Shown here: one piece after another, positions 5,602-24,000 of the stretch
Numbering within the stretch: position 1 is the first letter of the stretch
How the letters are laid out: the number at the start of each line of letters is the position of its first letter
Assembly: GCA_001412355.1 (NCBI GenBank)
Contig: LKUD01000033.1
Span: forward strand, 39,179 to 63,178
Origin: Methanoculleus sp. SDB
Lineage (GTDB): Archaea; Halobacteriota; Methanomicrobia; Methanomicrobiales; Methanomicrobiaceae
Reading direction: 5' to 3'
DNA: 24,000 bases
Made by a program: the position numbers and the translations under genes
Notes under the pieces: generated by a model
The model's database searches: none
The model's input: only the letters and a program-made list of their open reading frames with translations
What the model was told of the DNA's origin: nothing

Positions 5602-8600
5602 TCAGGTTCCGTTTACCGGACTACTCCTTTTTTTCTCAATCGCCGTTACTATCCGGTCAATAACAGGCGCACGCTTCTCATCCATCGCCGCTGCGGCCCG
5701 GAGCATAGCCACCGCGGGCTCGCCAATCTCGATCAATACCCGCTCAGCACCCATTCGTACTGCGGGTGCGGAGTCACCCAGAGTCTCGATAAGCGGTGCG
5801 ACCACCTGTGCCCCGCCGATGCGGGACATCGTCTTCATAGCGATCAGACGGACATCAATCGATTCGTCCTGAAGTGCTTCGGTGACCGGCCCGATGGCCG
5901 CCGGTCCGAGCCGGTCGAGTTCGCCCCACCGATCCTTGCCTATCAGGTAATATGCGTACTCGGTATCGTTACCCGCCTCCCATCCAAGCTGATCGAGCGC
6001 CTCGGCGACACCCTGCTTAAACTCTTTCTCGCCGTATTTCAGCGCATTGACGAGATGGTCCTGCGGGATACCCGAGGGATCCCTGAGGGCTTCGAGTGCA
6101 ACGTGCCTGACCCGGTAGTCGACATCGTTGAGAGCCTGTATCAGCGGTTCGATTGCCCGCCGATCCCCGATATATCCTAGCGAGTGGGCAGCGGCCATCT
6201 GTACCTCCTCGTCACGGTCACGGAGGGCGACAATAAGCGGATCGATCGAGCTCCGGTTGCCCATATACCCGAGTGCCTCGGCAATGACCGCACGCACCCG
6301 GTAATTCCGTTCCGTATTCATCGCCTCGATCAGGGCGTCGATAGATCGCTCGTTCCCGATCTTGCCGAGATTGCGTGCCGCCACCGTCCTCACGAACGTA
6401 TTATCGTCCCGGAGTGCGTTCATGAGAGGATCGACGGCAACCTCCCGCATCTCTCCGAGCAGCTCCGCAGCCGCCTTTTTAATTTCACTATCCTCGTTTC
6501 TCAACGCACGGATGAGCCCTTCGACCGCCGGCCTGCCCATCATCATCAGCCGCATCGAGACAGCCACCTGGGAGGTTCCGTTGCGATCTTTCAGGGCGAT
6601 AATCAGGTTTTCAATCTCCTGAGCTCCGTCCTTGTCGAACTCTTTCGCGTCGTTCTCTTCCATCGCACCGATCAGCTGCGGCTGCTCTTCCTCGACCTCC
6701 ACCCGCTTCATCCACGCATCACGCCAGACGTTGAGGATTTCGCGCTTTTTCATGACGCGTGCCGCCTTATCGCGGACCTCCTCGTCGGGATCCTGCATAG
6801 CGATCAGGATGGCCTCCTCGGCCCGGTGATCGTAAATCGTCCCGAGGGCATCGAGCGCGGCAAGGCGCTCCTTTAAAAGGCCTTTTTTCAGCACCCATGT
6901 CAGCGGCATGATGGCAGGGACTCCAATCTCGGACAGTGCCTGCGAAACCCCCCAGCGCACCTCCGCCACGTCGTCCCCGAGGTGTTCGATCAGGGCGGGG
7001 ATGGATTTGATATCGGCGAGCTTTGCAAGCGCACGGGCGGCACTGATTCGTACCAGGGCATTTGAGTTCTCCAGCGCTTTTAAGAGGGGAGTGAGTGCCG
7101 CAGTGCCGAATTCCACCAGCGCATCCGCGGCCGCGAAACGTACGCCGTTGTACTCGTCACTGAAGAGCTCCACGAGAAACGGTATTGAAAGCGGATTTTT
7201 CAGGCTCCCGAGGGAGAGAGAGGCGGAGATGCGTACATCCTCATAGGGATCGCGGAGCACCTGAATGAGAGGACCCACGCCCTTCTGGCTTCCCATCTCC
7301 CCGAGCGCATCGGAAGCCGCAAGCCGCACGGTGTACGTCTCGTCCTGCAACGCTTTGATCAGGTATTCAATCGCCGGATCACCCATTTCACGAAGCGATT
7401 CGATTGCGGTGGCACGTATCGACTCATCCCGCGATTTTAAGGCGCGGAGCAGCACTTCAACGGGGTCCTCCTTCACTGCGGGATCCTCGCCGGTGAAGGT
7501 TATCGATGTGTGCGAGTCGTAATCGATGAGATCGGCCGGCCCTTCCGCACGAGCGGCGGCTGGCGTGGCCCATACATCGTCGGCGTCTTCCGCCTCCGCA
7601 CGGGCCCGTTCCTGCGCGGCAGCCATCTCCTCCCTCTCAATCGCGGAAAAACGTTCCTTCAGGAATGTTTCCATCCCGCGAATGTCTTCAGGCGTCGGTT
7701 CGGCACCCTCCGCCGGCTTCACCGAAGGCTCCGGCTTTTCCGCACGCTGCCGTTTCCGCTCGGCTGCTGCAAGCCCTTCGTTCACTTTTCGTTCGCTCTC
7801 GGCAATCATCTGCCGGAGCTCTTTCTGCTCTGCCGGACTGGGAACCTGCTTCGGGAAGGGAGGCCGGGCATCCTCCGTTGCTTTGCCGGGACGAACCGGG
7901 AGTCTGCCCTCCAAAATCCGCTGCTCATCGAATTTTTTTCGGGCGCCCATTGAATCATCGTACTCGCGCCTGAACGTCTCCGAATCGGCGACACTCTTGC
8001 GTGCGAGGGTGGATTCCTCCTCGTTTTTCTTTTTTATCGAAGAAATCGCCCGGCGGGCCGACTCTTTCCGGACCGAATCCTGAACTGAGAGGGCGGCCAG
8101 CAGCGCTTCATGTGCGGGATTACCGATCTTCCGGAGTGCTTCCACGGCACCCAGCCGGACACCCGAATGGGCTTCCTGCAGTACCTCGATGAGCGGCTGA
8201 ATCGCGGGTTTGCCTAAGCTGGCAAGCTCGTTCCACTGCTCTTTGGCGATCAGGTACCGGATCTGCTGCCGGGCGTTCGCCGGCTTCCACCCGAGCCGGT
8301 CCAGTGCCCAGGCCGCCTCCATCCTCACCTGAGGATAGGAATCATCCAGCACCGCCATCAGATCGGGGAGTGCCCGGTTATCGCCCAGTTCCCCGTACGA
8401 CTCCGCCGATGCGGCGCGTACGTGGGCATCGTCATCAGAAAGCCCCTTCTGCAGAACCGGGATGGCGCGAAGATCATGAATCCTCCCGAGCGACCGGATG
8501 GCGAGTATCCTGACGCCGGGATCCGGATCGCCTGCCGCCTCAAGAAGAACGGGAACAGCTGCCTTTTTCAGCTTCACGCATTCTTTCCACTCCTCGCGGA

Positions 8601-9144
8601 TACAGAAGAGGTATGCCTTTTCGGTGTCGTCCTCCGGTTCCCATCCTGTCCGCGCCAGCGCATTGCCGGCTTCACGCCGGACGTCGCGGTTACTGTCGGA
8701 GCTGAGATGGCGAAGGGCGAGCAGTGCGTCCATATTTTTCTTTCCCAGGGACCCGAGCATGATCGCTGCCCCCTTCCTGACCGATGCAGATTCGTGCATA
8801 AGTGCCGGGGTGATCGCCTCAAATGCCGGCGTGCCGAGCCGTGCGACATCATCCGAAATATCTGCCGCAACCTCCCCGGGCACCTTCCCCACGAGATGCA
8901 GGAGAGCAGGAAGTGCCGGAAGGCCGGGTGACGAGAGTGCATGGGCGAGACCGGACGAACCGGAACCGCCGGAGAGGCGGGCTACGACGGCCCGGATCGC
9001 AGGCGCACCGAGAGAAAAGAGTGCGGTGGCAGCCCCGGGATGGTATTCGGTATCCGCTCCTGAAAGAATGTTCAGGAGACCGTCGATGTCCCCTGCATCC
9101 TTCAGTTTCCTGATATCCGGTGCAGATCTGCCAAAAAACGCCAT
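5602..9144 (-). CDS. Large HEAT-repeat (PBS-lyase HEAT-like) protein, ~1180 aa
   Basis: Track ORF is 5602..9516. I trimmed it to ATG 9142-9144 (MAFFGRSAPDIRKLKDAGDIDGLL) because the upstream 124 codons overlap the FTR gene and are Arg/Pro-rich. It contains dozens of ~31-aa repeats of the type D..VR..AA.ALG.iGd..Ai.pLi.aL.D. A charged low-complexity linker is encoded at about 7500-8035. Confidence 0.9.
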   Translation of the reverse strand: MAFFGRSAPDIRKLKDAGDIDGLLNILSGADTEYHPGAATALFSLGAPAIRAVVARLSGGSGSSGLAHALSSPGLPALPALLHLVGKVPGEVAADISDDVARLGTPAFEAITPALMHESASVRKGAAIMLGSLGKKNMDALLALRHLSSDSNRDVRREAGNALARTGWEPEDDTEKAYLFCIREEWKECVKLKKAAVPVLLEAAGDPDPGVRILAIRSLGRIHDLRAIPVLQKGLSDDDAHVRAASAESYGELGDNRALPDLMAVLDDSYPQVRMEAAWALDRLGWKPANARQQIRYLIAKEQWNELASLGKPAIQPLIEVLQEAHSGVRLGAVEALRKIGNPAHEALLAALSVQDSVRKESARRAISSIKKKNEEESTLARKSVADSETFRREYDDSMGARKKFDEQRILEGRLPVRPGKATEDARPPFPKQVPSPAEQKELRQMIAESERKVNEGLAAAERKRQRAEKPEPSVKPAEGAEPTPEDIRGMETFLKERFSAIEREEMAAAQERARAEAEDADDVWATPAAARAEGPADLIDYDSHTSITFTGEDPAVKEDPVEVLLRALKSRDESIRATAIESLREMGDPAIEYLIKALQDETYTVRLAASDALGEMGSQKGVGPLIQVLRDPYEDVRISASLSLGSLKNPLSIPFLVELFSDEYNGVRFAAADALVEFGTAALTPLLKALENSNALVRISAARALAKLADIKSIPALIEHLGDDVAEVRWGVSQALSEIGVPAIMPLTWVLKKGLLKERLAALDALGTIYDHRAEEAILIAMQDPDEEVRDKAARVMKKREILNVWRDAWMKRVEVEEEQPQLIGAMEENDAKEFDKDGAQEIENLIIALKDRNGTSQVAVSMRLMMMGRPAVEGLIRALRNEDSEIKKAAAELLGEMREVAVDPLMNALRDDNTFVRTVAARNLGKIGNERSIDALIEAMNTERNYRVRAVIAEALGYMGNRSSIDPLIVALRDRDEEVQMAAAHSLGYIGDRRAIEPLIQALNDVDYRVRHVALEALRDPSGIPQDHLVNALKYGEKEFKQGVAEALDQLGWEAGNDTEYAYYLIGKDRWGELDRLGPAAIGPVTEALQDESIDVRLIAMKTMSRIGGAQVVAPLIETLGDSAPAVRMGAERVLIEIGEPAVAMLRAAAAMDEKRAPVIDRIVTAIEKKRSSPVNGT

Positions 9145-9295
9145 TCCGCGACATCCTCCCGGCGCACACCGGCGGGTGTAAAAAAACAGACCGGGCTGTG
9201 CGGCGGATATGTAAATTACTGTTGTCGGGGGAGTATCTTGAATATTCTGTTCGGGGACTGTGGAGAACGGAGCGAGCCTACCCCGCACGCACGGC

Positions 9296-9808
9296 TCAGA
9301 AAAACTTTCTGAACCTCTCCCCCGTCGCATGGCAGATCGGGCAGTGTTCGGGAGGAGCGTTCCGTGCGCAGATGTACCCGCAGACCGGGCAGCGCAGGAC
9401 GGGGTATGCGAGTTTCCGGGGCACATCAGTCTCCTGCGGGCGAACGAATCCGGACCGTTCTGATGCTGCAGGCCGCCGTTCCGGAATGGGGGCCGCTTCG
9501 GCACGACCCTCAGCAATCATGTCGGAGACATACAGGGCACAGTAACACGATCCGTATTCGGCAAGATCGGGATCACGATAATCGCAGGGACAGACGATAT
9601 CCAGATCGTCCTCCCTCTTTCCTGCCGCACGCCGGCAGGGGCACGCCTGATACCCGTATCGTTTCTCATTTGCTATCAGGCCCCGGACAAGATGGCGGGT
9701 AACGGACATATCGGGATTCAGGTGGTACCCGGAATGTTCAGCCTCGTTCCGGAGACGCGCCACACGCGCCGAAATTTCATCCTCACTGACGTCAGGCAGT
9801 TTCTTCAT
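9296..9808 (-). CDS. Ferredoxin:thioredoxin-reductase catalytic-subunit-like protein fused to a C-terminal rubredoxin domain
   Basis: Track ORF of 170 aa. The FTR-type Cys pattern is ACPCRR...VCPCDYRDPDLAEYGSCYCALY (CPC...CPC...CxC). The C-terminal rubredoxin knuckles are CPVCGY...CPICHA. Confidence 0.88.
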   Translation of the reverse strand: MKKLPDVSEDEISARVARLRNEAEHSGYHLNPDMSVTRHLVRGLIANEKRYGYQACPCRRAAGKREDDLDIVCPCDYRDPDLAEYGSCYCALYVSDMIAEGRAEAAPIPERRPAASERSGFVRPQETDVPRKLAYPVLRCPVCGYICARNAPPEHCPICHATGERFRKFF

Positions 9809-14936: not shown

Positions 14937-15011
14937 GGGGCAGTAGGGTAGCCTGGTCCATCCTAGAGCGTTTGGGACGCTTTGACGGCAGTTCGAATCT
15001 GCCCTGCCCCA
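14937..15011 (+). tRNA. tRNA-Pro (anticodon UGG)
   Basis: The cloverleaf was folded by hand. Acceptor GGGGCAG/CTGCCCC; D arm with A14, G18G19 and A21; anticodon stem GAGCG/CGCTT with loop TT-TGG-GA. The variable loop is TGAC, the T arm is GGCAG-TTCGAAT-CTGCC and the discriminator is A. There is no encoded CCA and no intron. Confidence 0.93.
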
Positions 15012-15016
15012 TTTTC

Positions 15017-15703
15017 ATGCAGCGGTCCGAAGCCTGCACGGTCTATCGCATTCTCCGGGAGTATTATGGTGTCACCCGCTCTTCAGAGCGCCATTTTCTC
15101 GATTTTAAAAACCCGTTCGAGATTCTTGTCATGACCATCCTCTCCGCACAGACGACGGACCGGACGGTTAACGCCGTAAAGGACACGCTGTTTCACCGGT
15201 ACCCGGATCCCGCCGCACTCGCCCGGGCCGATCCCGCCGAGGTGGAACGGATTATCAGGAGCACCGGGTTTTTCCGGGCCAAGGCGAGGAATATCATACG
15301 GGCGGCAGGTATTCTTGAAAGCCGCCATGGCGGAAACGTCCCGTCCTCAATGGACGAACTCCTTCTCCTGCCCGGAGTGGGAAGGAAGACGGCAAATATC
15401 GTGCTCCACCATGCCTATGACATAACCGCGGGAATTGCCGTCGACACCCATGTAAAGCGCGTTTCCACTCGTCTCGGCTTCACCGAAAAAACAGACCCCG
15501 ACGAGATCGAGAAAGACCTCACAGTCCTTTTTCCCAGAAAGGCATGGAGTGAGATCAATTATCTCTTCATCAGGCACGGGCGCAGTATCTGCGATGCAAA
15601 AAAACCGAGGTGCACGGAATGCCCCGTTTCGGGGCACTGCCGGTACTACCTGTCCGGACGGTCAGGGGATGAGGGACGTATACATGAGATAACAGCCCCA
15701 TGA
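15017..15703 (+). CDS. nth: Endonuclease III (DNA glycosylase/AP lyase)
   Basis: Track ORF is 14972..15703. The start was moved to ATG 15017 because earlier codons lie inside the tRNA. Motifs: FEILVMTILSAQTTD, HhH-GPD LPGVGRKTANIVL, and the FeS cluster loop CDAKKPRCTECPVSGHC. Confidence 0.92.
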   Translation: MQRSEACTVYRILREYYGVTRSSERHFLDFKNPFEILVMTILSAQTTDRTVNAVKDTLFHRYPDPAALARADPAEVERIIRSTGFFRAKARNIIRAAGILESRHGGNVPSSMDELLLLPGVGRKTANIVLHHAYDITAGIAVDTHVKRVSTRLGFTEKTDPDEIEKDLTVLFPRKAWSEINYLFIRHGRSICDAKKPRCTECPVSGHCRYYLSGRSGDEGRIHEITAP

Positions 15704-16840
15704 CACCACCGCCGAAGCGGGCAGCGTGATCACCCATGCAGCGACAATTTCACGGACAATCCCCCATTTCACGGCCGAATATCCGCGGGTTGCCCCGACC
15801 CCCATGATCGCCCCGCTCATGGCATGCGTGGTCGAGACCGGGACACCCAGCGCGGTCATCAGCGACAGCACCCCGCCCCCCGCAGTCGAAGCGCAAAATC
15901 CCTGATACGGCCTGATTTTCGTTATCCCCGTTGCCATCTTCTTGACCACCCTCCAGCCGCCGAAGAGCGTGCCGAGTGCGATGGCAAGACAGGAGACCAG
16001 AATTACCCAGAAAGGAACGGAAAAATCGGTGAGAAAACCCCCGGCGACGAGCATTGCCGTAATGACACCCATCGCGTTCTGTGCGTCGTTCGAACCGTGG
16101 CCGATTGCCTGAAAGGATCCCGCGAAAATCTGGAGGGGTTTGAAGGCACGGTTCAGGCGGGCGGGATGGACTTTCCGGAACCATCGCATGATGATAATGC
16201 CGAAAAAGAATGCGGAGAGGAAACCGAGCATTGGGGAGACCACGATAAACACCAGGACGGCGAGGATCCCCTTCACCGTGATAACACCCGGGATGATCAG
16301 CAGCGGCACGATAAGTGACATTCCCGCCAGAAATCCGGTCCCGAGAGTATCCCGGAGCGGGTTTCCCCGGTGAAGATTGAACGCCGTGTATACGGCGGCA
16401 CCCGCCACTCCGCCAATCACCATATACGCGAGCAGCGCCGTGACGGTCCCGATATCGGGCCACAGTATGGAAGCCGCCCCGCCTGCACCGATACCCGCAC
16501 CCACCAGCCCGCCGACGAGCGCATGGCTGCTTGAAACGGGAATCCCGAAATATGACGAGAGAAACACCCAGAGTACGGCACCGATAAGGCCCGTCAGCAG
16601 GAGGTGGGGGGTGAGGAAACCGGGATCGACGATACCCTTTCCGATCGTTGTTGCAATCGCCGTCGAGAAGATAAAAGGCCCGACAAGGTTGAATATCGAG
16701 GCGAGCAGGACGGCACGTAACGGTGAGAGGGCCCGCGTGGCGACGATGGTCGCGATCGAATTAGCCGCATCGTTCAGCCCGTTGACAAAATTGAACAGGA
16801 GGGCGATAAAAATCCCGGCGGCGATGATGACAATCTCCAT
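15662..16840 (-). CDS. Inorganic phosphate transporter, PiT family
   Basis: Track ORF of 392 aa. It is polytopic with the duplicated PHO4 signature (NGLNDAANSIAT and GHGSNDAQNAMG). The 3' end overlaps nth convergently. Confidence 0.93.
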   Translation of the reverse strand: MEIVIIAAGIFIALLFNFVNGLNDAANSIATIVATRALSPLRAVLLASIFNLVGPFIFSTAIATTIGKGIVDPGFLTPHLLLTGLIGAVLWVFLSSYFGIPVSSSHALVGGLVGAGIGAGGAASILWPDIGTVTALLAYMVIGGVAGAAVYTAFNLHRGNPLRDTLGTGFLAGMSLIVPLLIIPGVITVKGILAVLVFIVVSPMLGFLSAFFFGIIIMRWFRKVHPARLNRAFKPLQIFAGSFQAIGHGSNDAQNAMGVITAMLVAGGFLTDFSVPFWVILVSCLAIALGTLFGGWRVVKKMATGITKIRPYQGFCASTAGGGVLSLMTALGVPVSTTHAMSGAIMGVGATRGYSAVKWGIVREIVAAWVITLPASAVVSWGCYLMYTSLIP

Positions 16841-16846
16841 GGCGGT

Positions 16847-17518
16847 TCACGTATGTCTGATTGCGATGTCGGAAAGCACGTTCGCCGCATCTTCGCACTT
16901 GTCCGTCGCCATCTCGAGATTCCCGTAGATGTCCTTGAGCTTGATGATCTGGATGGCGTCATCCGAGTGGAAGAGTTTACGGAGTGCATGGCCCAGCACA
17001 TCGTCCGCGAGGTTTTCGAGGCGGTTGACCTCAATGCATCGTTCTTCAATATTCTTCGCGTTTTTCATGTTGCGAACACTGTTCACGGCACTCTCCAGTT
17101 CGGTTACCGAGAAAAGGATGAGTTTTGCGAGTTCGACCATGTATTCGTCCGATTCCGCGATGTCATAGACGTACATCTGCCTCGCCGTGCCGTCGATATA
17201 ATCCAGAATATCGTCCAGTGCCGAAGCGAGCCGCGAGATCTCCTCGGGTTCGAGCGGCGTGATGAACGTCCGGTTGAGGAGTTCGTAGATTGAGTGGGTG
17301 ATCTGGTCACCTTTGTGCTCAACCTGCTTCATCTTATGGCACTTGTTCTTGATATCCTGATAGTCTTCGACCAGAACGACAAGCTGTTCGGCGGCTATTC
17401 GCACGTTAGCCGCAAGCTCCTCGAAGAGATCGAAAAAAACCTTGTCCTGCGGGACAACCCACTCTTTGATCCCCACAACGCACCACGGTAGGATTGGTGC
17501 GGCAGAGTCATAAACCAT
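16847..17518 (-). CDS. DUF47 / PhoU-like phosphate transport regulator
   Basis: Track ORF of 223 aa, 7 nt upstream of the PiT gene, which is the usual pairing. The family N-terminus is normally M-G-x-KEW..P....FF.L. An internal GTG at 17474-17476 (giving MGIKEWVVPQDKVFFDLFEE) is therefore a plausible true start. Confidence 0.88.
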   Translation of the reverse strand: MVYDSAAPILPWCVVGIKEWVVPQDKVFFDLFEELAANVRIAAEQLVVLVEDYQDIKNKCHKMKQVEHKGDQITHSIYELLNRTFITPLEPEEISRLASALDDILDYIDGTARQMYVYDIAESDEYMVELAKLILFSVTELESAVNSVRNMKNAKNIEERCIEVNRLENLADDVLGHALRKLFHSDDAIQIIKLKDIYGNLEMATDKCEDAANVLSDIAIRHT

Positions 17519-17672
17519 GTGTTGTGCCCCAAGGCTGCTCGTAATGCGGTGGACGGCTTCCGTGCAGCATTACAGGAGAAGGTGAAATCAGGCCTGTAAT
17601 GATGCGGACGCGACTGTATGCCGCTTCCGGAGGAGATAGTTATACTCAAGACTTTCTGTAAAATCTAAAATT

Positions 17673-17704
17673 TCAGAATAATCAGAATATTTATATCATT
17701 CTGA
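17673..17704. promoter_or_regulatory. hgc operon promoter with TCAGAAT repeat set flanking the TATA box (candidate operator)
   Basis: The sequence is TCAGAAT-aa-TCAGAAT-ATTTATATC-ATTCTGA. There are two direct copies (17673-17679 and 17682-17688) and one inverted copy (17698-17704). They bracket a TATA-like ATTTATAT ~40 nt upstream of ATG 17731. Confidence 0.4.
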
Positions 17705-17730
17705 CGACATATGATGGTGCAGGAAAATCC

Positions 17731-17991
17731 ATGACAGGAGAAGACATCTCCTGCAGCTGCGCTCCTGAAGCCGGCTGCAGGATTGAGGCGGTGCTCACCG
17801 TCGACGACCGGGGGCAGATGGTGCTCCCGAAGGATATCCGCGAACGGGCGGCAATCCGCCCCGGCGAGAAGCTCGCGCTGATTGCATGGGAGAAAGACGG
17901 GAGCGTCTGCTGCCTCGCCCTGATCAAGGCCGATAACCTGAGCGGTATGGTCCGGGATGTGCTTGGCCCGCTGATGAATGCGGTGGAGTGA
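17731..17991 (+). CDS. AbrB/SpoVT-like DNA-binding protein with Cys-rich N-terminus, encoded immediately upstream of hgcA
   Basis: Track ORF of 86 aa. The looped-hinge-helix core is VLTVDDRGQMVLPKDIRERAAIRPGEKLALI. Extra cysteines: CSC-x5-C at the N-terminus and a CC pair (GSVCCLALIK). Its stop (17989-17991) overlaps a GTG in the hgcA frame and lies 20 nt before the hgcA ATG. Confidence 0.8.
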   Translation: MTGEDISCSCAPEAGCRIEAVLTVDDRGQMVLPKDIRERAAIRPGEKLALIAWEKDGSVCCLALIKADNLSGMVRDVLGPLMNAVE

Positions 17992-18011
17992 TTCCACCGG
18001 AGGACGGGAGC

Positions 18012-19088
18012 ATGAGTAAAAAGATGGGAAAGCATGAGGGCAAACAGCCGTGCTGCTGTTCCTGTTCTCCGGCAGAGCAGCCCTCCTGCGATTGCGGCAC
18101 GGAAATGCCGTCGCCTCCTGAAATCAGGAATACCGGCGGAAGTCTGACATGGGCGGATCGTTTCGACCATATTGCCGCCCGGTGGGGGTACAGGCGCATG
18201 CATCACCGCGTGGAGCCGGGACTCTACCGGCTCGGTAGCCCCTCACCCGATTCTCCGGTCTTTGCATCGGCAAATTATACCCTGAGCTTCGATGCACTCC
18301 GATCATCCCTTGCCGGGACCGACTGCTTCATCCTCGTGCTGGATACGAAGGGCATCAATGTCTGGTGTGCCGCGGGAAAGGGGACGTTCGGAACCGATGA
18401 GCTTGTATTTCGGATTGCTGTAACACGGCTCAGCGACGTCGTCCGGCACCGGACGATCATCGTTCCGCAGCTCGGCGCACCCGGGATTGCGGCGCACGAG
18501 GTGCTGAGGCGATCGGGATTTTGCGTGCAGTACGGCCCGGTGCGAGCCTCCGATCTCCCGGAGTACCTGGCAACCGGAACGGCCACACCGGAGATGCGGC
18601 GGGTCAGGTTCCCGTTCAGGGACAGGATCGTGCTGATCCCCGTGGAGCTGGTCCAGGCGCTGCCGCTCACCCTGATCGCAGCCGTTCTTCTCGGGGCGTT
18701 TATCGACATGGGGGCCGCACTCAGGGTGATCGCTGCCGTCGGGGCAGGCACCGTCCTCTTCCCGGCGCTCCTCCCGGTCCTCCCGACGAAGGATTTCACC
18801 ACGAAGGGCCTGTTTCTCGGCGTTCTCGCCATGCTCCCCTTCGCGGCTCTGGATCTCTCCGCTCCGGCGGCGGGGACCCTCGCATACCTGCAGGCCGCGG
18901 CAGGGCTTCTGCTCTTCCCGGCGATCACCGCGTACCTGGCCCTGAACTTTACGGGCTGCACGCCCTATACGTCGCGGAGCGGTGTCAGGCGGGAGATCTT
19001 CCGGTACACGAAACCGCTCGCGGGCATGGCTCTGGGAGGTATCGCCCTTGCGGCAATCCTCGGAATAGTGATGGTGGTGAACGGCTGA
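18012..19088 (+). CDS. hgcA: Mercury methylation corrinoid protein HgcA
   Basis: Track ORF is 17988..19088 with a GTG start. I prefer ATG 18012 (MSKKMGKHEG) because GGAGG lies 8 nt upstream. The diagnostic cap-helix motif is GINVWCAAGKGTFGT, within a CFeSP-like corrinoid domain (LSFDALR...ILVLDTKGINVWCAAGKGTF...IVPQLGAPGIAAHEV). A C-terminal domain of ~5 TM helices follows. Confidence 0.93.
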   Translation: MSKKMGKHEGKQPCCCSCSPAEQPSCDCGTEMPSPPEIRNTGGSLTWADRFDHIAARWGYRRMHHRVEPGLYRLGSPSPDSPVFASANYTLSFDALRSSLAGTDCFILVLDTKGINVWCAAGKGTFGTDELVFRIAVTRLSDVVRHRTIIVPQLGAPGIAAHEVLRRSGFCVQYGPVRASDLPEYLATGTATPEMRRVRFPFRDRIVLIPVELVQALPLTLIAAVLLGAFIDMGAALRVIAAVGAGTVLFPALLPVLPTKDFTTKGLFLGVLAMLPFAALDLSAPAAGTLAYLQAAAGLLLFPAITAYLALNFTGCTPYTSRSGVRREIFRYTKPLAGMALGGIALAAILGIVMVVNG

Positions 19089-19408
19089 TGGCGTTTGATT
19101 CGTACACGGAAAACACGCTCCTGTATTTCCCGGAGCGGTGCATCAACTGCGGGAAATGCAGCACCGTCTGCCCTCACGGGGTCTTCGCCGCAGGTGAGGG
19201 GTGTGCCGTTCTTGCACGCCGCGAATCCTGCATGGAGTGCGGGGCCTGCATGATAAACTGCCCGGTGCAGGCGATCACGGTGGAGAGCGGCGTCGGGTGC
19301 GCACAGGCGATGATCCATGCGGCACTCACCGGAGGCGAGGAGACCTGCGGGTGCTGCGGCGAGGAAGGAGGCGGTTCCAACGGAGCGTGCTGTTCGGGGT
19401 GGGAATAG
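19088..19408 (+). CDS. hgcB: Mercury methylation ferredoxin HgcB (2x[4Fe-4S])
   Basis: The 106-aa reading frame lies inside track ORF 18521..19408: MAFDSYTENTLLYFPERCINCGKCSTVCPHG...CMECGACMINCP. It has two CxxCxxCxxxCP motifs including the hallmark CMECGA, and a Cys-rich tail (TCGCCGEE...ACCSGWE). The ATG overlaps the hgcA TGA (TGATG at 19086-19090). Confidence 0.92.
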   Translation: MAFDSYTENTLLYFPERCINCGKCSTVCPHGVFAAGEGCAVLARRESCMECGACMINCPVQAITVESGVGCAQAMIHAALTGGEETCGCCGEEGGGSNGACCSGWE

Positions 19409-19428
19409 GTTAAATACGCCAGCCAGAG

Positions 19429-19443
19429 GGAGGATTATCCTCC
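19429..19443. terminator. Perfect hairpin between convergent hgcB and rnc
   Basis: GGAGGA-tta-TCCTCC is followed on the plus strand by GGAAAATTTTATT. It sits in the 43-nt gap between two convergent stop codons and could serve both directions. Confidence 0.35.
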
Positions 19444-19451
19444 GGAAAATT

Positions 19452-20154
19452 TTATTCACCAGATACTATCGACAGCGCCTTGCGGGCGGCTTCCGTTGCG
19501 GCTTCCCGTTTCGTGGAACCGGATCCTTTTGCAATTTTTTTATCCCCGAGAGAGAGTTCTGAAATCCATTTTTTCTGATGATCAGGGCCTTCCCAGGAGT
19601 AAATGTAATTCAGTTCACCCGGTGCATGCTTCGCGACATATTCCTGAAGTCTGCCTTTATAATTTCCATCCGGATTAAAATTCTTAATTTCATCACGAAA
19701 CATACCAAGAATGACTTCACGCGCTTTTTCCAATCCTTCAGCACATCCAAGCGCACCGATAAACGCTTCAAAGGCATCAGCAATGATTTTGTCAGTAAGC
19801 CCCGTCCCTTTCCCCAGCACTATGACCTCGTCAATTTTCAGATCATTTTTCATGACGATATCAGCCGGATTTGTATTTTCCGTCACCCTCATCCTGACAT
19901 TCATCTCACCGGGGCTATAGTCCGTCGATTCATACAGGTGCCTGGCAATAATATAATCAAGAAAATAATTTCCACAAAACTCCAATCTCTCATAATCCTC
20001 GCAAAAAAAGATTTTTCTGTTTCATTTCTTCGGCGAACGAACTGTGCGTGAGAGCACGGTCATTGAGTCCGAGAGATTCATCATGAGATGTGTCAATTCT
20101 GAATTTCGGCCCGTGGAGAATATCGAGTATCTGCTGTCTCCGCGATTCTTCCAT
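19452..20154 (-). pseudogene. rnc: Ribonuclease III gene interrupted by a +1 frameshift in a T7 run
   Basis: Manual translation from ATG 20152-20154 gives MEESRRQQILDILHGPKFRIDTSHDESLGLNDRALTHSSFAEEMKQKNLF, an RNase III N-terminus (ALTHSS). The frame breaks at the coding-strand T7 run (plus-strand A7 at 20003-20009). The next frame, which includes track ORF 19452..19985, continues CEDYERLEFCGNYFLD...ADAFEAFIGA plus a dsRBD (GPDHQKKW...GSGSTKREAATEAARKAL). The span is 703 nt, and removing one T restores a 233-codon ORF. Confidence 0.8.
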
Positions 20155-20228
20155 AATAAATCAATAAAACGGTGAGCGCATAAACGATTTCTCCGGATAA
20201 AATACCGAACCGGAGGCTACCGCCGGGA

Positions 20229-20810
20229 TTACCGGCGGATAATGCACGCCTCAAGGGAGCGCTTGGGGACATGGTGCACGCCACGTGCGTCCCGCCAGTA
20301 CCGTGTGTCGCCGGATTCGGGCAGCGGCTCGATGACGATGGTTTCTGCAGGATAGCCGAGTGCGATAACAAGCCGGATCGCGTAGTCGTCCGCGAGGTCG
20401 AGGACGGACCGCAGCGCATCCTTCCGGATCGAGCCCATCATGCAGCCGGCAAGCCCTCGTTCCGCCGCAGCGAGCAGGATCGTCTGGGCCGCGATCCCGA
20501 TGTCATAGCAGGGATCAAAGGCAGGGTTCGGTTCGGTCACGATCGTAATATATGCCGCGGGCCGCTCCCCGCGTGCCGGCCCGTCCCATTCGGGAAGATC
20601 GAGGGCCCATACCAGGCAGTCGGTGATGCGTTCGGTCTCCTCCGGATCAATCGAGAGCACGTAGCGGAGCGGCTGCCGGTTCCGGGCCGAGGGGCAGAAC
20701 CGGGCGATGTCGATGAGATCGCGGAGGGTCTCGTTGGGGATACGCTCTTTTTCACGGAAGCGGCGGGTGCTTCGTGAGGTGGTAACGAGCGTTCGGATCT
20801 GATCCTGCAT
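20229..20810 (-). CDS. Nitroreductase-family flavoprotein
   Basis: Track ORF of 193 aa. The nitroreductase N-terminal signature is TSRSTRRFREKERIPNETLRDLIDIARFCPSARNRQPLRYVL. The stop codon sits in the loop of a perfect hairpin, CCGCCGG-gatta-CCGGCGG (20220-20238). Confidence 0.9.
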   Translation of the reverse strand: MQDQIRTLVTTSRSTRRFREKERIPNETLRDLIDIARFCPSARNRQPLRYVLSIDPEETERITDCLVWALDLPEWDGPARGERPAAYITIVTEPNPAFDPCYDIGIAAQTILLAAAERGLAGCMMGSIRKDALRSVLDLADDYAIRLVIALGYPAETIVIEPLPESGDTRYWRDARGVHHVPKRSLEACIIRR

Positions 20811-21013
20811 GATGACTGGAGGGAGGGGAGGGGTAGTAAAGGGATCGGCGTTTCGGAGTGGCCTCCCGAAAAACGGGCTTTACATTACCCGGCGAGCCGT
20901 GAGCTTTACAATAATCGCAACCTGGGACGAACATCGGACCGATCAGGACAACCGAAAGCGCATCGCTTTTGAGAAATGCCGCGAAATATCTCCGTACCAT
21001 ACAGGGAGCCACC

Positions 21014-21679
21014 ATGAAAGCGGAAGAACATTTTAATGATACGGCCGACCGCTATGAAGGCCTCATCGTGAATATCATCCCGAATCCCGCTCTTTTCTTT
21101 GATTCGGCACTTGACTGCATCCCGGACGGACGGATAACCGTTCTCGAACTGGGCAGCGGAACGGGGTATGTCACAGAACAGATTCTTCGAAAAAATCCGG
21201 ACGCGGAGATTACCTGCATCGATATGACGCCGGAAATGCTTTCCATCGCCCGGAAAAAACCGACTCTTGCCGGTGTTGCGTTCCTGGAAGGCGATTTCAG
21301 GGATGTATGGCCTGACGGTCAGTTCGACGTCGTGATCACGACCCTCTGCCTTCACCATCTGCCGGATGCGGATCGGGCGACGATCGTCCGCCGTATCCAT
21401 ACGTCCCTGAACAACGGCGGGCGCTTCATCAACGGGGATGTCTTCAAACCCGACCATGCCTGGGAGGAGGCCATATACAGCACCCGATGGGGCCGGTACA
21501 TGACGGACCACGGCCTTTCCGAACCGGAGGCGGAGGGCATGCTGGCCAAGCGGGAAAAGAGCTATGGCTTTATCGACACCTTCGAACAGTACCGGCAGAA
21601 GCTCATCGATGCCGGGTTCGGGCGGATTTTCTTCCCGTATCATTATGACTTTTACGGCGTTTTCATCGCATTCCGATGA
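21014..21679 (+). CDS. Class I SAM-dependent methyltransferase
   Basis: Track ORF is 20969..21679. The start was moved to ATG 21014 (MKAEEHFNDTADRYEG), which has GGGAG upstream. Motif I is VLELGSGTGYVT, followed by the acidic post-I CIDMTPEML and motif-II-like FDVVITTLCLHHL. Confidence 0.88.
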   Translation: MKAEEHFNDTADRYEGLIVNIIPNPALFFDSALDCIPDGRITVLELGSGTGYVTEQILRKNPDAEITCIDMTPEMLSIARKKPTLAGVAFLEGDFRDVWPDGQFDVVITTLCLHHLPDADRATIVRRIHTSLNNGGRFINGDVFKPDHAWEEAIYSTRWGRYMTDHGLSEPEAEGMLAKREKSYGFIDTFEQYRQKLIDAGFGRIFFPYHYDFYGVFIAFR

Positions 21680-21696
21680 AATGCCGGGATGACAAT

Positions 21697-21936
21697 CGCT
21701 GTTTTCCGCCGGGAATCCTGCATGGAGTGGGGGGTTTGCATGAAAAAATGCCCGGTAGGGCGATCGCGGTGGAGAACAGCGTCGGATGTGCACAGGAGAT
21801 GATCCAGGCCACTCTCACCGGCGGCGAGGCAACCTGCGGGTGCTGCGGTGAGGAGGAGGGTTGCACGGGAGGAGCGTGTTGTTCCGTGTGGAAATGGCGG
21901 ATATCTTGGGCCATATTTTTTCAGGGAAACGAATAA
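21697..21936 (+). pseudogene. Degenerate partial copy of hgcB (3' half: second Fe-S motif plus Cys-rich tail)
   Basis: Nucleotides ~21697-21897 align by eye with hgcB 19205-19405, with roughly four of five bases identical. The CMECGACMINCPVQAITVE equivalent reads CMEWGVCMKKCPV, showing a Cys->Trp change (TGC->TGG). A 1-nt deletion follows (ccggtgcaggcgatc vs ccggta-gggcgatc). The tail is in frame in track ORF 21676..21936 (VENSVGCAQEMIQATLTGGEATCGCCGEEEGCTGGACCSVWK). The original stop is replaced by TGG. The first Fe-S motif and the N-terminus are absent. Confidence 0.75.
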
Positions 21937-22189
21937 ACTCCCTTTTAATGAAAGGGTGGGAACATTACTCCCTGAAATAATGAGCATATTCTTTTCTCGA
22001 TACTCAGAAAGCACCTGAATATTACACAAAATTCCAACCATTTTTCCGCCATTTCCCTTCTTGATAAATTCGGTGAGATCTGTTTGAATAACGTGAAACA
22101 TGCACGCACGGATACCCTTTATAGATCATTGGGTAATGTACTATCACGGGCAGGCTTTCCAGTCTGCATGATCTTTGGGGTGCGATGCA

Positions 22190-22423
22190 ATGAAACACCT
22201 GAATTACCGTATTCTCCTCCGGAAGGAGCCTGAAGGCGGGTATACAGTCACAGTACCGACGCTTCCCGGCTGCGTCACCTTCGGGGAGACCGTTGATGAG
22301 GCCATAGCGATGGCACGGGAGGCAATCGGGCTCTATATCGAGGACCTCCGGGAGAAGGGCGAGGACATTCCTACCGAGGAAGGACTTCTCGAATACACCG
22401 TCACAATCGAAGCCCATGCCTAA
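22190..22423 (+). CDS. hicB: HicB-family antitoxin (UPF0150)
   Basis: Track ORF is 22175..22423 with a TTG start. ATG 22190 gives MKHLNYRILLRKEPEGGYTVTVPTLPGCVTFGETVDEAIAMAREAI, the canonical HicB N-terminal fold. It overlaps hicA by 8 nt. Confidence 0.85.
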   Translation: MKHLNYRILLRKEPEGGYTVTVPTLPGCVTFGETVDEAIAMAREAIGLYIEDLREKGEDIPTEEGLLEYTVTIEAHA

Positions 22424-22637
22424 ACTTCCGGCGCTCACGCCCCAGAAAATCATTAAAATTCTGGAAAAGAGAGGATTTGTGCTAAGCCGGATCAAGGGAA
22501 GCCATCATCTGTTCTATCATCCGGAGACGAAGCGCCGGGTTGTTGTCCCCGTGCACAAACGCGATCTCCCGGCCGGTACGCTTCTGGAGATCCTCAAGCA
22601 GGCCGGAATCGATCGGGACGAAATTCTGGACCTTTAA
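22416..22637 (+). CDS. hicA: HicA-family mRNA interferase toxin
   Basis: Track ORF of 73 aa: LTPQKIIKILEKRGFVLSRIKGSHHLFYHPETKRRVVVPVHKRDLPAGTLLEILKQAGI. This is the typical HicA/YcfA dsRBD-like pattern with the catalytic GSH. Confidence 0.9.
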   Translation: MPKLPALTPQKIIKILEKRGFVLSRIKGSHHLFYHPETKRRVVVPVHKRDLPAGTLLEILKQAGIDRDEILDL

Positions 22638-22653
22638 TACAAGTTTTAATACA

Positions 22654-22676
22654 AGATCTGCCGCACAGGCAGATCT
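22654..22676. terminator. Perfect 9-bp hairpin after hicA
   Basis: AGATCTGCC-gcaca-GGCAGATCT lies 17 nt after the hicA stop. It is preceded by a tandem TTAATACAAG x2 (22634-22643 and 22646-22655). No T-run follows, so its function is uncertain. Confidence 0.35.
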
Positions 22677-23098
22677 GCTGTTATGAGAAAGGGAAAAAAT
22701 TATTCCGGGGAAACACGTACCCGGATTTTTCCCAGGCCTCACGCGTCGCCGGGTTTCTCCGGAGATACTCATCCACAATCCGTTTTTCCACGGTGTTCAG
22801 CGGGCACGAGAAGTTGATACGCATACTGCCAGTAGTAGACCTTCATAATCTGCAGAAATACCGCAGACGCCGCCAGCGTCAGCAGGAACGTGCCGACTGC
22901 GCCCGCAAGCGCAATCACCCCGCGGCCTCTACTATGTACTATGCCTAGGTCTTTGGGGAATTTTTCGGCCTGCGTTTCTGAAAAAATCAGGGAATCACAG
23001 GAATTATCCTAGGTAACATCTAGGGCACAATCCAAGGACAATTCACGAACGCGGTTCGTTCGTCGAAAGAGACTATTAACAACCCCTATAGCGATATT

Positions 23099-23347
23099 CT
23101 AACGAAAAATTCGTTTATCTGCTAATATACGGAAGGTTCTCGAAAAGAAAGCGCGTTGGTATGAAAGCGCCATGATATCGTTGTATTCATCGACTCCCAA
23201 GTAGTTCCACCAATTAGCATTCCAATTTGTCTCTGCAAGTTCCCGGTGTTCAAGCCCTTTGATGATGATATCAGCCGATGGAATAGGCGAGCCGCCCAGT
23301 GTTCGAAGAATACCGAGCATCGGGAGTTTATCCCTCTCGGTGAACAT
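23099..23347 (-). CDS. Hypothetical protein or gene fragment, no recognisable family
   Basis: Track ORF of 82 aa in a low-G+C stretch. The frame stays open ~25 codons upstream of the ATG (..RRRTGHTYIPEG-MFTERDK), so it may be the tail of a decayed longer gene. I recognise no motif. Confidence 0.3.
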   Translation of the reverse strand: MFTERDKLPMLGILRTLGGSPIPSADIIIKGLEHRELAETNWNANWWNYLGVDEYNDIMALSYQRAFFSRTFRILADKRIFR

Positions 23348-23511
23348 TCCCTCTGGAATGTACGTATGGCCTGTCCGGCGGCGAACTCTAGAGAGTCCGG
23401 ATTTTAAGCTACATCAAAAGAACTCCAGGTTATAGCGGCCCATTCCGGACCGGAACGCCAGCCCCCTTCACTGCCGGGAGAAAGCAGCATTACCGTTAAG
23501 AATCCGACGAG

Positions 23512-24000
23512 CTACAGGAGGAGCTCAAATGTCTGCTCGATCACCGGTGTTCCCCAGGTGCTGTCCTCCTGCTCGGCGATGAGGGTAAACCCGGTCTTTT
23601 CATAGAGGTGTCGTGCGGCATCCAGCCCGGCGAAGGTGGTCAGGTAGACCCTCCGGAAACCTGCGCGGGCACAGAAACCGAGCGCCTCCTGCATCAGGAG
23701 GTTTCCAAGGCCGCCCCCATGATATTCGGGTGCGACGATGAACCACCGCAGCCGTGCCTCTTTCGTCCCGGCACCTTCGCCCTCGACGGCGATCGCCCCG
23801 ACCAGCCCACCGTCCGCCTTCGCCACCCAGAAGCCGTCATGCGCCGGGTCGAAGCGGGTGAGAAACGCGGAGAGTTCACTCGCCACCTTCGCCTCGAAGT
23901 AGAGGTCGAAATTCCAGTGTTCGTGATAATATGTCGCATGGAGCGCGGTGATCTCTCGGATCAAACCGGGTGTATAGCCATGCAGTTCGAATTCCGGCAT
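23512..24000 (-). CDS. GNAT-family N-acetyltransferase
   Basis: Track ORF of 162 aa whose ATG coincides with the window end. The acetyl-CoA binding motif A region is RWFIVAPEYHGGGLGNLLMQEALGFCARAGF, followed by YEKTGF. Confidence 0.9.
   Translation of the reverse strand: MPEFELHGYTPGLIREITALHATYYHEHWNFDLYFEAKVASELSAFLTRFDPAHDGFWVAKADGGLVGAIAVEGEGAGTKEARLRWFIVAPEYHGGGLGNLLMQEALGFCARAGFRRVYLTTFAGLDAARHLYEKTGFTLIAEQEDSTWGTPVIEQTFELLL

Follow-up and report, generated by a model that had tools for sequence, protein, structure and literature searches.

Direct repeats of a gene's 3' end around additional genes are the classic footprint of integration, and gene order in organelles is well known to evolve by tandem duplication and random loss, with pseudogenes left behind as vestiges. 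[quoted passage not shown] Here we describe a comparable arrangement at the mercury-methylation genes hgcAB of a methanogenic archaeon. The window, i.e. the whole stretch of 24,000 nucleotides (nt) that was analyzed, derives from the metagenome-assembled genome (MAG) of Methanoculleus sp. SDB and holds, downstream of an intact hgcB, a second and incomplete copy of that gene. HgcB proteins are characterized by two CxxCxxCxxxCP [4Fe-4S] motifs, a strictly conserved Cys and C-terminal cysteines (PMC7305189). According to our analysis, the second copy, hereafter the remnant, is a non-functional, 5'-truncated orphan hgcB 3' end that is decaying at about the neutral rate.

With the Rhs, CDI and T6SS orphans this locus shares a complete gene that is followed by a co-oriented, 5'-truncated copy of its own 3' end, which incoming DNA would have displaced. 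One junction would be homologous and the other non-homologous, and an integrase is lacking. The window has the intact gene, the truncated copy downstream of it and, where the orphan begins, a junction without homology. The locus differs from those systems in having a single orphan instead of an array, in coding for a ferredoxin and not a polymorphic toxin, and in its archaeal host. The hgcB orphan is moreover decaying, comes without an immunity gene or selectable function, and its mechanism of origin is inferred here from geometry only.

The two copies (Table 1) were compared by local alignment, which pairs positions 19217-19406 with 21707-21895 in the same orientation. Identity amounts to 159 of 195 columns (81.5%), and the score of 203 is far above that of 300 shuffles (19.1±2.3, maximum 28). 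A repeat search recovered the same pair as two ungapped blocks of 50 nt (88%) and 137 nt (79%), whose offsets of 2490 and 2489 place one insertion or deletion (indel) of 1 nt near 21757/21758. The direct repeat of about 200 bp that had been proposed from the sequence alone (the original prediction) is thus borne out by formal alignment. Its proposed start at 19205/21697 is not, as the extra ~10 nt align no better than chance and the left edge of the remnant lies at ~21703-21707. Upstream of ~21703 the local score is that of the average shuffle, and a possible GDER/DDNR match there is likewise not significant. At the other end, no more than 1-3 nt separate the limit of homology from the hgcB stop codon. 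The 24-27 nt of filler that link the methyltransferase stop to the remnant do not resemble what follows the methyltransferase gene in four other genomes. A tblastn match of "YGVFIAFR" at the methyltransferase C-terminus to HgcB was rejected as a coincidence, this sequence being native to that methyltransferase family.

Table 1. Features of the hgcCAB locus and of the DNA downstream of it (window positions; ORF, open reading frame; aa, amino acids; GC, guanine plus cytosine content).
Feature	Positions	Strand	Evidence and remarks
hgcC, AbrB-like, HgcAB-associated, first gene of the locus	17731..17991	+	NF040962, 123.7 bits (cut-off 70); Pfam MazE_antitoxin/AbrB
hgcA, corrinoid protein	18012..19088	+	NF040863 equivalog, 425.9 bits (cut-off 275); NVWCAAGK motif in the translation
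hgcB, intact, 106 aa	19088..19408	+	NF040864 equivalog, 109.4 bits (cut-off 99)
Repeat copy 1	19217..19406	+	3' 190 nt of the intact hgcB; repeat search and local alignment
AT-rich rnc block	19409..20229	-	GC 41-46% vs ~63-67% in neighbours; ORFs 19452-19985 and 19990-20154
Nitroreductase-family gene	20229..20810	-	Pfam PF00881, E=1.4e-22
Block lacking in L171/L172	20850..22102	+	Part of the intergenic region, methyltransferase, remnant and AT-rich spacer
Class I S-adenosylmethionine (SAM)-dependent methyltransferase	21014..21679	+	Pfam Methyltransf_25/11/12
ORF of 86 aa, hypothetical protein APR53_09265 (KQC04983.1)	21676..21936	+	Overlies the remnant
Junction/filler, methyltransferase stop to remnant	21680..21706	+	No detectable homology to hgcB
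hgcB remnant, repeat copy 2	21707..21897	+	hgcB codons ~44-106
AT-rich spacer after the remnant	21898..22102	.	GC 36-42%; 205 nt
hicB-hicA toxin-antitoxin pair	22190..22637	+	Pfam HicB_lk_antitox and HicA_toxin; right flank common to L171/L172

The remnant carries three lesions. In the second CxxCxxCxxxCP motif, the second Cys of CMECGAC is replaced by Trp (TGC to TGG, 21728-21730). A deletion of 1 nt at 21757/21758, the only indel needed in a codon alignment, shifts the frame after GTA at 21755-21757, and the stop codon TAG has become TGG (21895-21897). Every tail cysteine (SVGCAQ, CGCCG...ACCS) is retained in the window. These details, together with the missing 5' half and the synonymous codon pairs, had been listed in the original prediction and are all present. 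Among the conserved HgcB positions, Cys is altered to Trp or stop, NCP to KCP and CAQA to CAQE. The Gly/Glu/Ser-rich linker between CGCCG and ACCS evolves fast even in functional hgcB genes.

As in HgcB proteins, the frame-corrected remnant aligns to the NF040864 model, at positions 40-89, which comprise the second Fe-S motif, the conserved Cys and the C-terminal Cys pairs. Unlike them it has no first Fe-S motif and no in-frame start, one of its ligands is Trp, it is frameshifted and its stop is lost. It scores 47.4 bits and the 86-aa ORF 26.4 bits, both below the cut-off of 99 that the resident HgcB exceeds. Only the second of the two motifs is held, with Trp in place of its second Cys. The conserved Cys ~12 residues after this motif and the C-terminal cysteines are found in the window remnant, and the tail is lost in the related lineage L162. 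Sequence resembling hgcA occurs nowhere in the window beyond 18012-19088, and the remnant thus lacks the neighbouring, co-oriented hgcA that an hgcB would have.

The evolution of the remnant was followed in five related lineages (L162, L174, L173, L171/L172 and L177), which have 86-93% nucleotide identity with the window and among themselves. The remnant of L162 (1942-2083) has the same 5' junction as that of the window, and the 30 nt that lead from the methyltransferase stop to the remnant show 83% identity between the two lineages. The truncation therefore predates the split of the two lineages, and the junction was formed once. We conclude that a single event gave rise to the remnant in the common ancestor of a small clade of Methanomicrobiaceae, to which Methanoculleus sp. 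SDB and L162 belong. The lesions, by contrast, are lineage-specific: the same Cys codon reads TGG in the window and TGA in L162, and the 1-nt deletion is found in the window only. In L162, recognizable similarity is gone after LTGGE and the Cys-rich tail can no longer be made out. The similarity of L162 to the window breaks off inside the remnant (window 21847), which indicates a further rearrangement with its breakpoint within the remnant. The last ~160 nt of L162 (2084-2241) are AT-rich and found no match among the sequences compared.

Site patterns were analyzed over the 121-nt core that is common to two resident genes and two remnants (window and L162). Over this core the residents are 95.9% identical to each other and the remnants 85.8%. 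Of the changes specific to one copy, 9 (plus the indel) fall to the window remnant, 6 to the L162 remnant, and 3 and 0 to the corresponding residents, an imbalance of 15 to 3 since the split (p=0.0075). By codon position, changes on the remnant branches are distributed 3:5:7, as compared with 5:5:22 for the variable sites among six resident genes. With the Cys-codon changes included, the remnant branches hold 10 nonsynonymous and 6 synonymous changes, so that resident-like constraint is rejected (p=0.002) and neutrality is retained (p=0.12). The divergence between the window and L162 remnants (K=0.16-0.18) is close to that of the nitroreductase-methyltransferase intergenic region (0.22) and to the synonymous divergence (dS) of four genes (0.22-0.45), and it greatly exceeds the nonsynonymous divergence (dN) of the resident 3' half (0.034). 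Both lineage-specific disabling lesions and an unconstrained rate and spectrum of substitution, as would be expected of a pseudogene, are hence found. No site of the core groups the copies by genome, and there is accordingly no sign of gene conversion.

It had been proposed that the second copy diverged under purifying selection as part of another functional hgcB before it was truncated. This is contradicted by the small number of sites that separate remnants from residents (4 of 121, plus 3 ambiguous, i.e. 4-7) and by the neutral-like excess of changes on the remnant branches, where most of the differences accumulated once the two lineages had separated. The window pair taken by itself gives a dN/dS of 0.225 (bootstrap 0.10-0.49), with differences distributed 7:8:21 over the codon positions. 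This low value arises because changes in the resident copy, which are largely synonymous or in the linker, are counted as well, and because GC-to-AT decay falls on GC-rich third positions. A three-sequence decomposition of distances assigns ~9 private changes to the window resident tail. As a sign of purifying selection, the pairwise value is overridden by the four-sequence analysis.

The remnant might nevertheless still function, either as a small Cys-rich protein encoded by the ORF at 21676-21936 and translationally coupled to the methyltransferase, or as a xenologous hgcB under purifying selection. In favour of a function, the 86-aa frame is uninterrupted, begins at an ATGA overlap with the methyltransferase gene and retains all tail cysteines, and the pairwise dN/dS is low. 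Against this, the equivalent ATG-overlap frame of L162 is ended by TGA after 17 codons and the Cys tail there is unrecognizable, evolution on the remnant branches is accelerated and neutral-like, and conserved HgcB positions are changed. The ORF belongs to no Pfam family, its protein cluster has a single member, and two indels, an additional base near 21700 and the deletion at 21757, are all that holds its frame open. We regard a functional remnant as most improbable; the ORF is a chance reading frame over the remnant, i.e. a pseudogene fragment.

What lies between the two copies had been described as a 2.3-kb cassette of rnc, nitroreductase and methyltransferase genes. Downstream of hgcB, the window reads rnc (disrupted), nitroreductase, methyltransferase, remnant, spacer and hicBA. 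L162 (JGI 3300068087) has nitroreductase, methyltransferase and remnant, and L174 (Logan SRR25893895) has the nitroreductase and the start of the methyltransferase, where the contig ends. L173 (JGI 3300068098) has rnc and then the end of the contig, L171/L172 (GCA_016926855.1/SRR13394437) have nitroreductase, hicBA and a GNAT gene, and L177, a fragment from ENA, has the nitroreductase. The parts are independently present or absent in these relatives; 19409-21696 is not one insertion, and the three genes did not arrive together.

The rnc gene, with a GC content of ~42%, is of the bacterial RNase III type (Pfam Ribonuclease_3 and dsrm, the dsRNA-binding domain), and a frameshift at a run of seven A (A7) divides it into ORFs of 177 and 54 aa. 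It fails RNase III membership, with 102.8 bits against a TIGR02191 cut-off of 166.25 and with the signature ERLEFCGN in place of ERLEFLGD (Asp to Asn). The block is present only in the window and in L173 (L173 4703-5002; 79% amino acid identity). It is absent from L162, L171/L172, L174 and L177, where 22-25 nt separate the stops of hgcB and the nitroreductase gene. The rnc block is a separate indel exactly at the hgcB stop and stands outside the original duplication. The spacer from the hgcB stop to the rnc stop cannot be aligned between the window and L173, and a hairpin is found in both.

The nitroreductase gene, in contrast, follows hgcB in every lineage with a contig that reaches far enough. 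It adjoins hgcB in L162, L171/L172, L174 and L177, the first four of these sequences having 87-92% amino acid identity to the window. The methyltransferase belongs to a family that is widespread in Methanomicrobiales; the L162 homologue is 88-89% identical, and L174 holds the first 17 codons. Both genes have a host-like GC content. In a blastn comparison of the window with L171, only 20230-20849 and 22103-22767 align, and 41 unrelated nt stand in place of 20850-22102. These 41 nt match neither the window block nor any of the other sequences compared. Both they and the unmatched end of L162 are for this reason unusable for polarizing the events.

A more distant relative without hgcAB, L165, has matching flanks (EndoIII-Pit-PhoU on one side, QRPTase-PNP_UDP-amidohydrolase on the other) and, between them, MJ0711_N, an MFS transporter and the methyltransferase (L165 1449-12750). 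The same interval holds hgcCAB, nitroreductase, hicBA, GNAT and a GIY-YIG gene in L171 (L171 5922-18909; window 14972-24000). A methyltransferase between the matching flanks of a genome that lacks hgcAB indicates a variable region in which the methyltransferase is at home. Within this family, hgcAB looks like island content.

These distributions bear on whether an integrase-mediated element targeted the hgcB 3' end, the repeats then being attL and attR and the integrase having been lost later. As in attL/attR duplications, a direct repeat of the target 3' end flanks the extra DNA on both sides and the gene remains whole through its upstream copy, which is the classic footprint of integration. 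The rnc block is also AT-rich and foreign-looking. On the other hand, neither an integrase nor presence as a single unit was found. The Pfam scan of the ORFs of the 24-kb window detected no integrase, excisionase, transposase or recombinase domain, in agreement with the original prediction, which saw no integrase, and the window contains no tRNA. The bracketed interior found no match in plasmid and phage collections, apart from RNase III proteins of phages that are only 26-33% identical to rnc. The bracketed genes are independently variable among the relatives, the nitroreductase and methyltransferase genes are host-type in GC content, and the methyltransferase is vertically distributed in Methanomicrobiales and occurs in the same neighbourhood without hgcAB. 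The hgcB repeat is furthermore long (190 nt), was once near-identical throughout and lacks a short identical core, unlike attL/attR. We therefore consider an integrase-mediated origin very unlikely.

As to the source of the remnant, its nearest sequence among 38 HgcBs is the resident HgcB (45 of 63 aa, score 252; next best 176). When 5.8 billion proteins were searched with the frame-corrected remnant, the resident HgcB and the remnant itself were the only matches, and no donor emerged. In an alignment with six residents, no more than four states are private to the two remnants, which branch off at the base of the clade. Some of their other states at variable sites are found in subsets of the residents; examples are GCG at the hypervariable AI-x-VE codon, which L174 has too, and GAA, which occurs in L174 and L177. 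Since the remnants share such states with some residents, the source would be the hgcB of the clade itself or that of a very close relative. As judged from the sequences, a distant xenologue is excluded. The source hgcB was ~95-97% identical to the clade's own gene, around the start of clade diversification.

This near-identity of the copies when L162 and the window diverged is also what would be expected of a duplication within the genome. Tandem duplication is the commonest spontaneous rearrangement, and a tandem duplication of hgcAB-nitroreductase-methyltransferase, or two near-identical hgcAB copies flanking the methyltransferase, could have been reduced by deletions to the present 190 nt. 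The remnant is co-oriented and, in the state without rnc, only 1.5 kb away, and as in tandem duplication-random loss a partial pseudogene lies near the functional gene after a change in gene order. Such a history, however, requires at least one duplication and two deletions whose ends fall exactly at the hgcB stop and ~24 nt after the methyltransferase stop, i.e. at gene ends. Other vestiges are missing: remnants of hgcA, hgcC, nitroreductase or methyltransferase are found nowhere else in the window at E<=10, and a second hgcB tail occurs in none of 160 other hgcAB loci. We consider duplication and loss unlikely. The same judgement applies to the alternative raised in the original prediction, recombination between two hgcAB loci with loss of the second hgcA, which accords with copies that were near-identical at divergence and needs more events.

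The block that is lacking in L171/L172 could also be read in the opposite direction. The methyltransferase would then have been inserted into an L171-like hgcB-nitroreductase-hicBA order by break repair or template switching, with a stretch of hgcB copied as templated filler. Methyltransferase, remnant and spacer are indeed lacking as one block in L171/L172, the remnant lies at the edge of this block, and such a copy would initially have been near-identical to the resident hgcB. This reading leaves unexplained that the copied stretch ends at the hgcB stop, and 190 nt is long for filler. In unrooted distances over the hgcA 3' end with hgcB and over the nitroreductase gene, moreover, lineages that bear the methyltransferase fall on both sides of L171. 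The L171 state is hence more simply explained by later loss, and we hold an origin as filler to be improbable.

The best explanation overall, in our view, is that the orphan hgcB 3' end was probably produced by one old recombination, the mechanism of which is read from its end points, and has since undergone neutral decay. We posit that two arrangements of the variable PhoU-QRPTase region recombined in a single event. A first, homologous crossover would have occurred in or upstream of hgcAB, and a second, illegitimate one would have fused a point ~24 nt downstream of the methyltransferase gene with the middle part of hgcB in the recipient, as happens in homology-facilitated illegitimate recombination or through unequal exchange of an equivalent kind. 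The incoming strand would have supplied a complete hgcB 3' end followed by the nitroreductase and methyltransferase genes, and the old hgcB 3' end of the recipient, with its own downstream DNA, would have been pushed behind the incoming genes. Homology would end at the hgcB stop because the two arrangements cease to be syntenic there. The separate rnc indel at the hgcB stop and the loss of the methyltransferase-remnant block in L171/L172 would have come later. The original prediction had suggested that incoming DNA supplied a replacement 3' end and displaced the original one; this geometry remains the best reading, while the version with an integrase attachment site does not hold.

Several observations weigh against this recombination. 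The order that it predicts for the recipient, with hgcB followed directly by spacer and hicBA without the nitroreductase gene, is seen in no lineage: the nitroreductase gene comes next in the five lineages with contigs that extend past hgcB (in the window, past rnc), and L173, which ends inside rnc, cannot be scored. The only sequence with a donor-like order is the product, and the two parental arrangements are thus not both observable. The AT-rich spacer has a counterpart in no relative, so that its identity as the original downstream DNA is inferred only; its sole blastn matches, L081/L176, are the same DNA, which confines it to the window's own assemblies. The polarity of the L171/L172 state (loss or never gained) depends on parsimony and on mosaic, unrooted distances. 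The relatives are all MAG or metagenome contigs, several of them short, and the signal is confined to ~120-190 nt, hence the small counts.

The arrangement itself is not a peculiarity of one assembler, as window positions 14976-24000 are 100% identical to an independent Logan assembly of run SRR2187629. The HgcB of the window is 100% identical to KQC04979.1 of Methanoculleus sp. SDB. HgcA-based searches of genome and metagenome contigs retrieved closest loci with only 64-66% identity, and a second hgcB tail or window-like neighbours were found in none of the 160 hgcAB loci from these searches. The close relatives were reached through a methyltransferase search and a 90% HgcB cluster. Exact look-ups of HgcB, the 86-aa ORF and HicA returned nothing beyond the same organism and relatives already known, and cluster look-ups added a single sequence, the 523-nt fragment L177. 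An Rfam scan of 17000-23000 gave nothing credible, its sole match being SAM-Chlorobi at the level of noise (E=0.57).

The hgcA and hgcB genes of the window overlap at ATGA, the start of hgcB lying within the stop of hgcA, and the intact HgcB has both CxxCxxCxxxCP motifs, the conserved Cys71 and a Cys-rich tail. The hgcB stop codon varies, being TAG in the window and L162, TGA in L171 and L174, and TAA in L173. In most archaeal loci retrieved, hgcC is kept upstream of hgcA, and the locus is accordingly hgcC-hgcA-hgcB. The closest lineage pairs differ by segment when hgcC-hgcA-hgcB, the nitroreductase gene and Pit-PhoU are compared among the window, L162, L171, L173 and L174. L173 and L174, for example, are 93.3% identical over hgcCAB and 87.8% over the hgcA 3' end with hgcB, and L162 is an outlier for the nitroreductase gene only. 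The locus is hence mosaic, which suggests, from sequence comparison, that recombination has taken place among these lineages at hgcAB.

Compared with the L171 proteins, HicB (22190-22423) is 96% and HicA (22416-22637) 100% identical, against 87-95% for adjoining genes; the hicBA pair is either unusually conserved or recently exchanged. The remainder of the window encodes an ABC transporter, MntP, a HEAT-repeat protein, a radical SAM enzyme, EndoIII, Pit and PhoU, i.e. ordinary chromosome. The HEAT-repeat protein (1304 aa, window 5602-9516, minus strand) consists almost wholly of HEAT/PBS-lyase repeats and has an L171 counterpart of at least 1179 aa at the equivalent place.

Among the NCBIfam models, the methyltransferase matches CpaM best ("corrinoid protein-associated methyltransferase"); at 68.8 bits it stays short of the cut-off, which is 180. 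At ~12 unrelated bacterial and archaeal loci (L035, L041, L052, L056, L088, L107, L120, L138, L142, L143, L147 and L154), a class I methyltransferase with ~30% identity to that of the window is encoded no more than a few kb away from hgcAB. SAM is reportedly the methyl donor for HgcAB. The proximity of such methyltransferases to hgcAB may be meaningful, or may be due to chance since they are common.

The remnant is neither a mobile gene cassette nor a second working gene, and it does not reveal a new system or function. One further idea arises because the nitroreductase-methyltransferase arrangement and the rnc block both start exactly at the hgcB 3' end, which might be a recurrent, integrase-independent site of gene capture in these methanogens. 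We hold this to be improbable. If true, a feature of the site would promote illegitimate joining and thereby remodel the mercury-methylation locus, candidates being the hairpin after the stop codon and the G-rich sequence that encodes the Cys tail.

In practical terms, the annotation of APR53_09265 (KQC04983.1) can be corrected from hypothetical protein to pseudogene fragment, and marker surveys that tally hgcB-like reads could miscount the remnant as a second hgcB. For the biology of this Methanomicrobiaceae clade, the remnant represents a dated footprint in the neighbourhood of hgcAB, within the variable and recombination-prone PhoU-QRPTase region. It points to gain and loss of genes there by illegitimate recombination and not by recognizable mobile elements, which bears on the patchy spread of hgcAB among methanogens.

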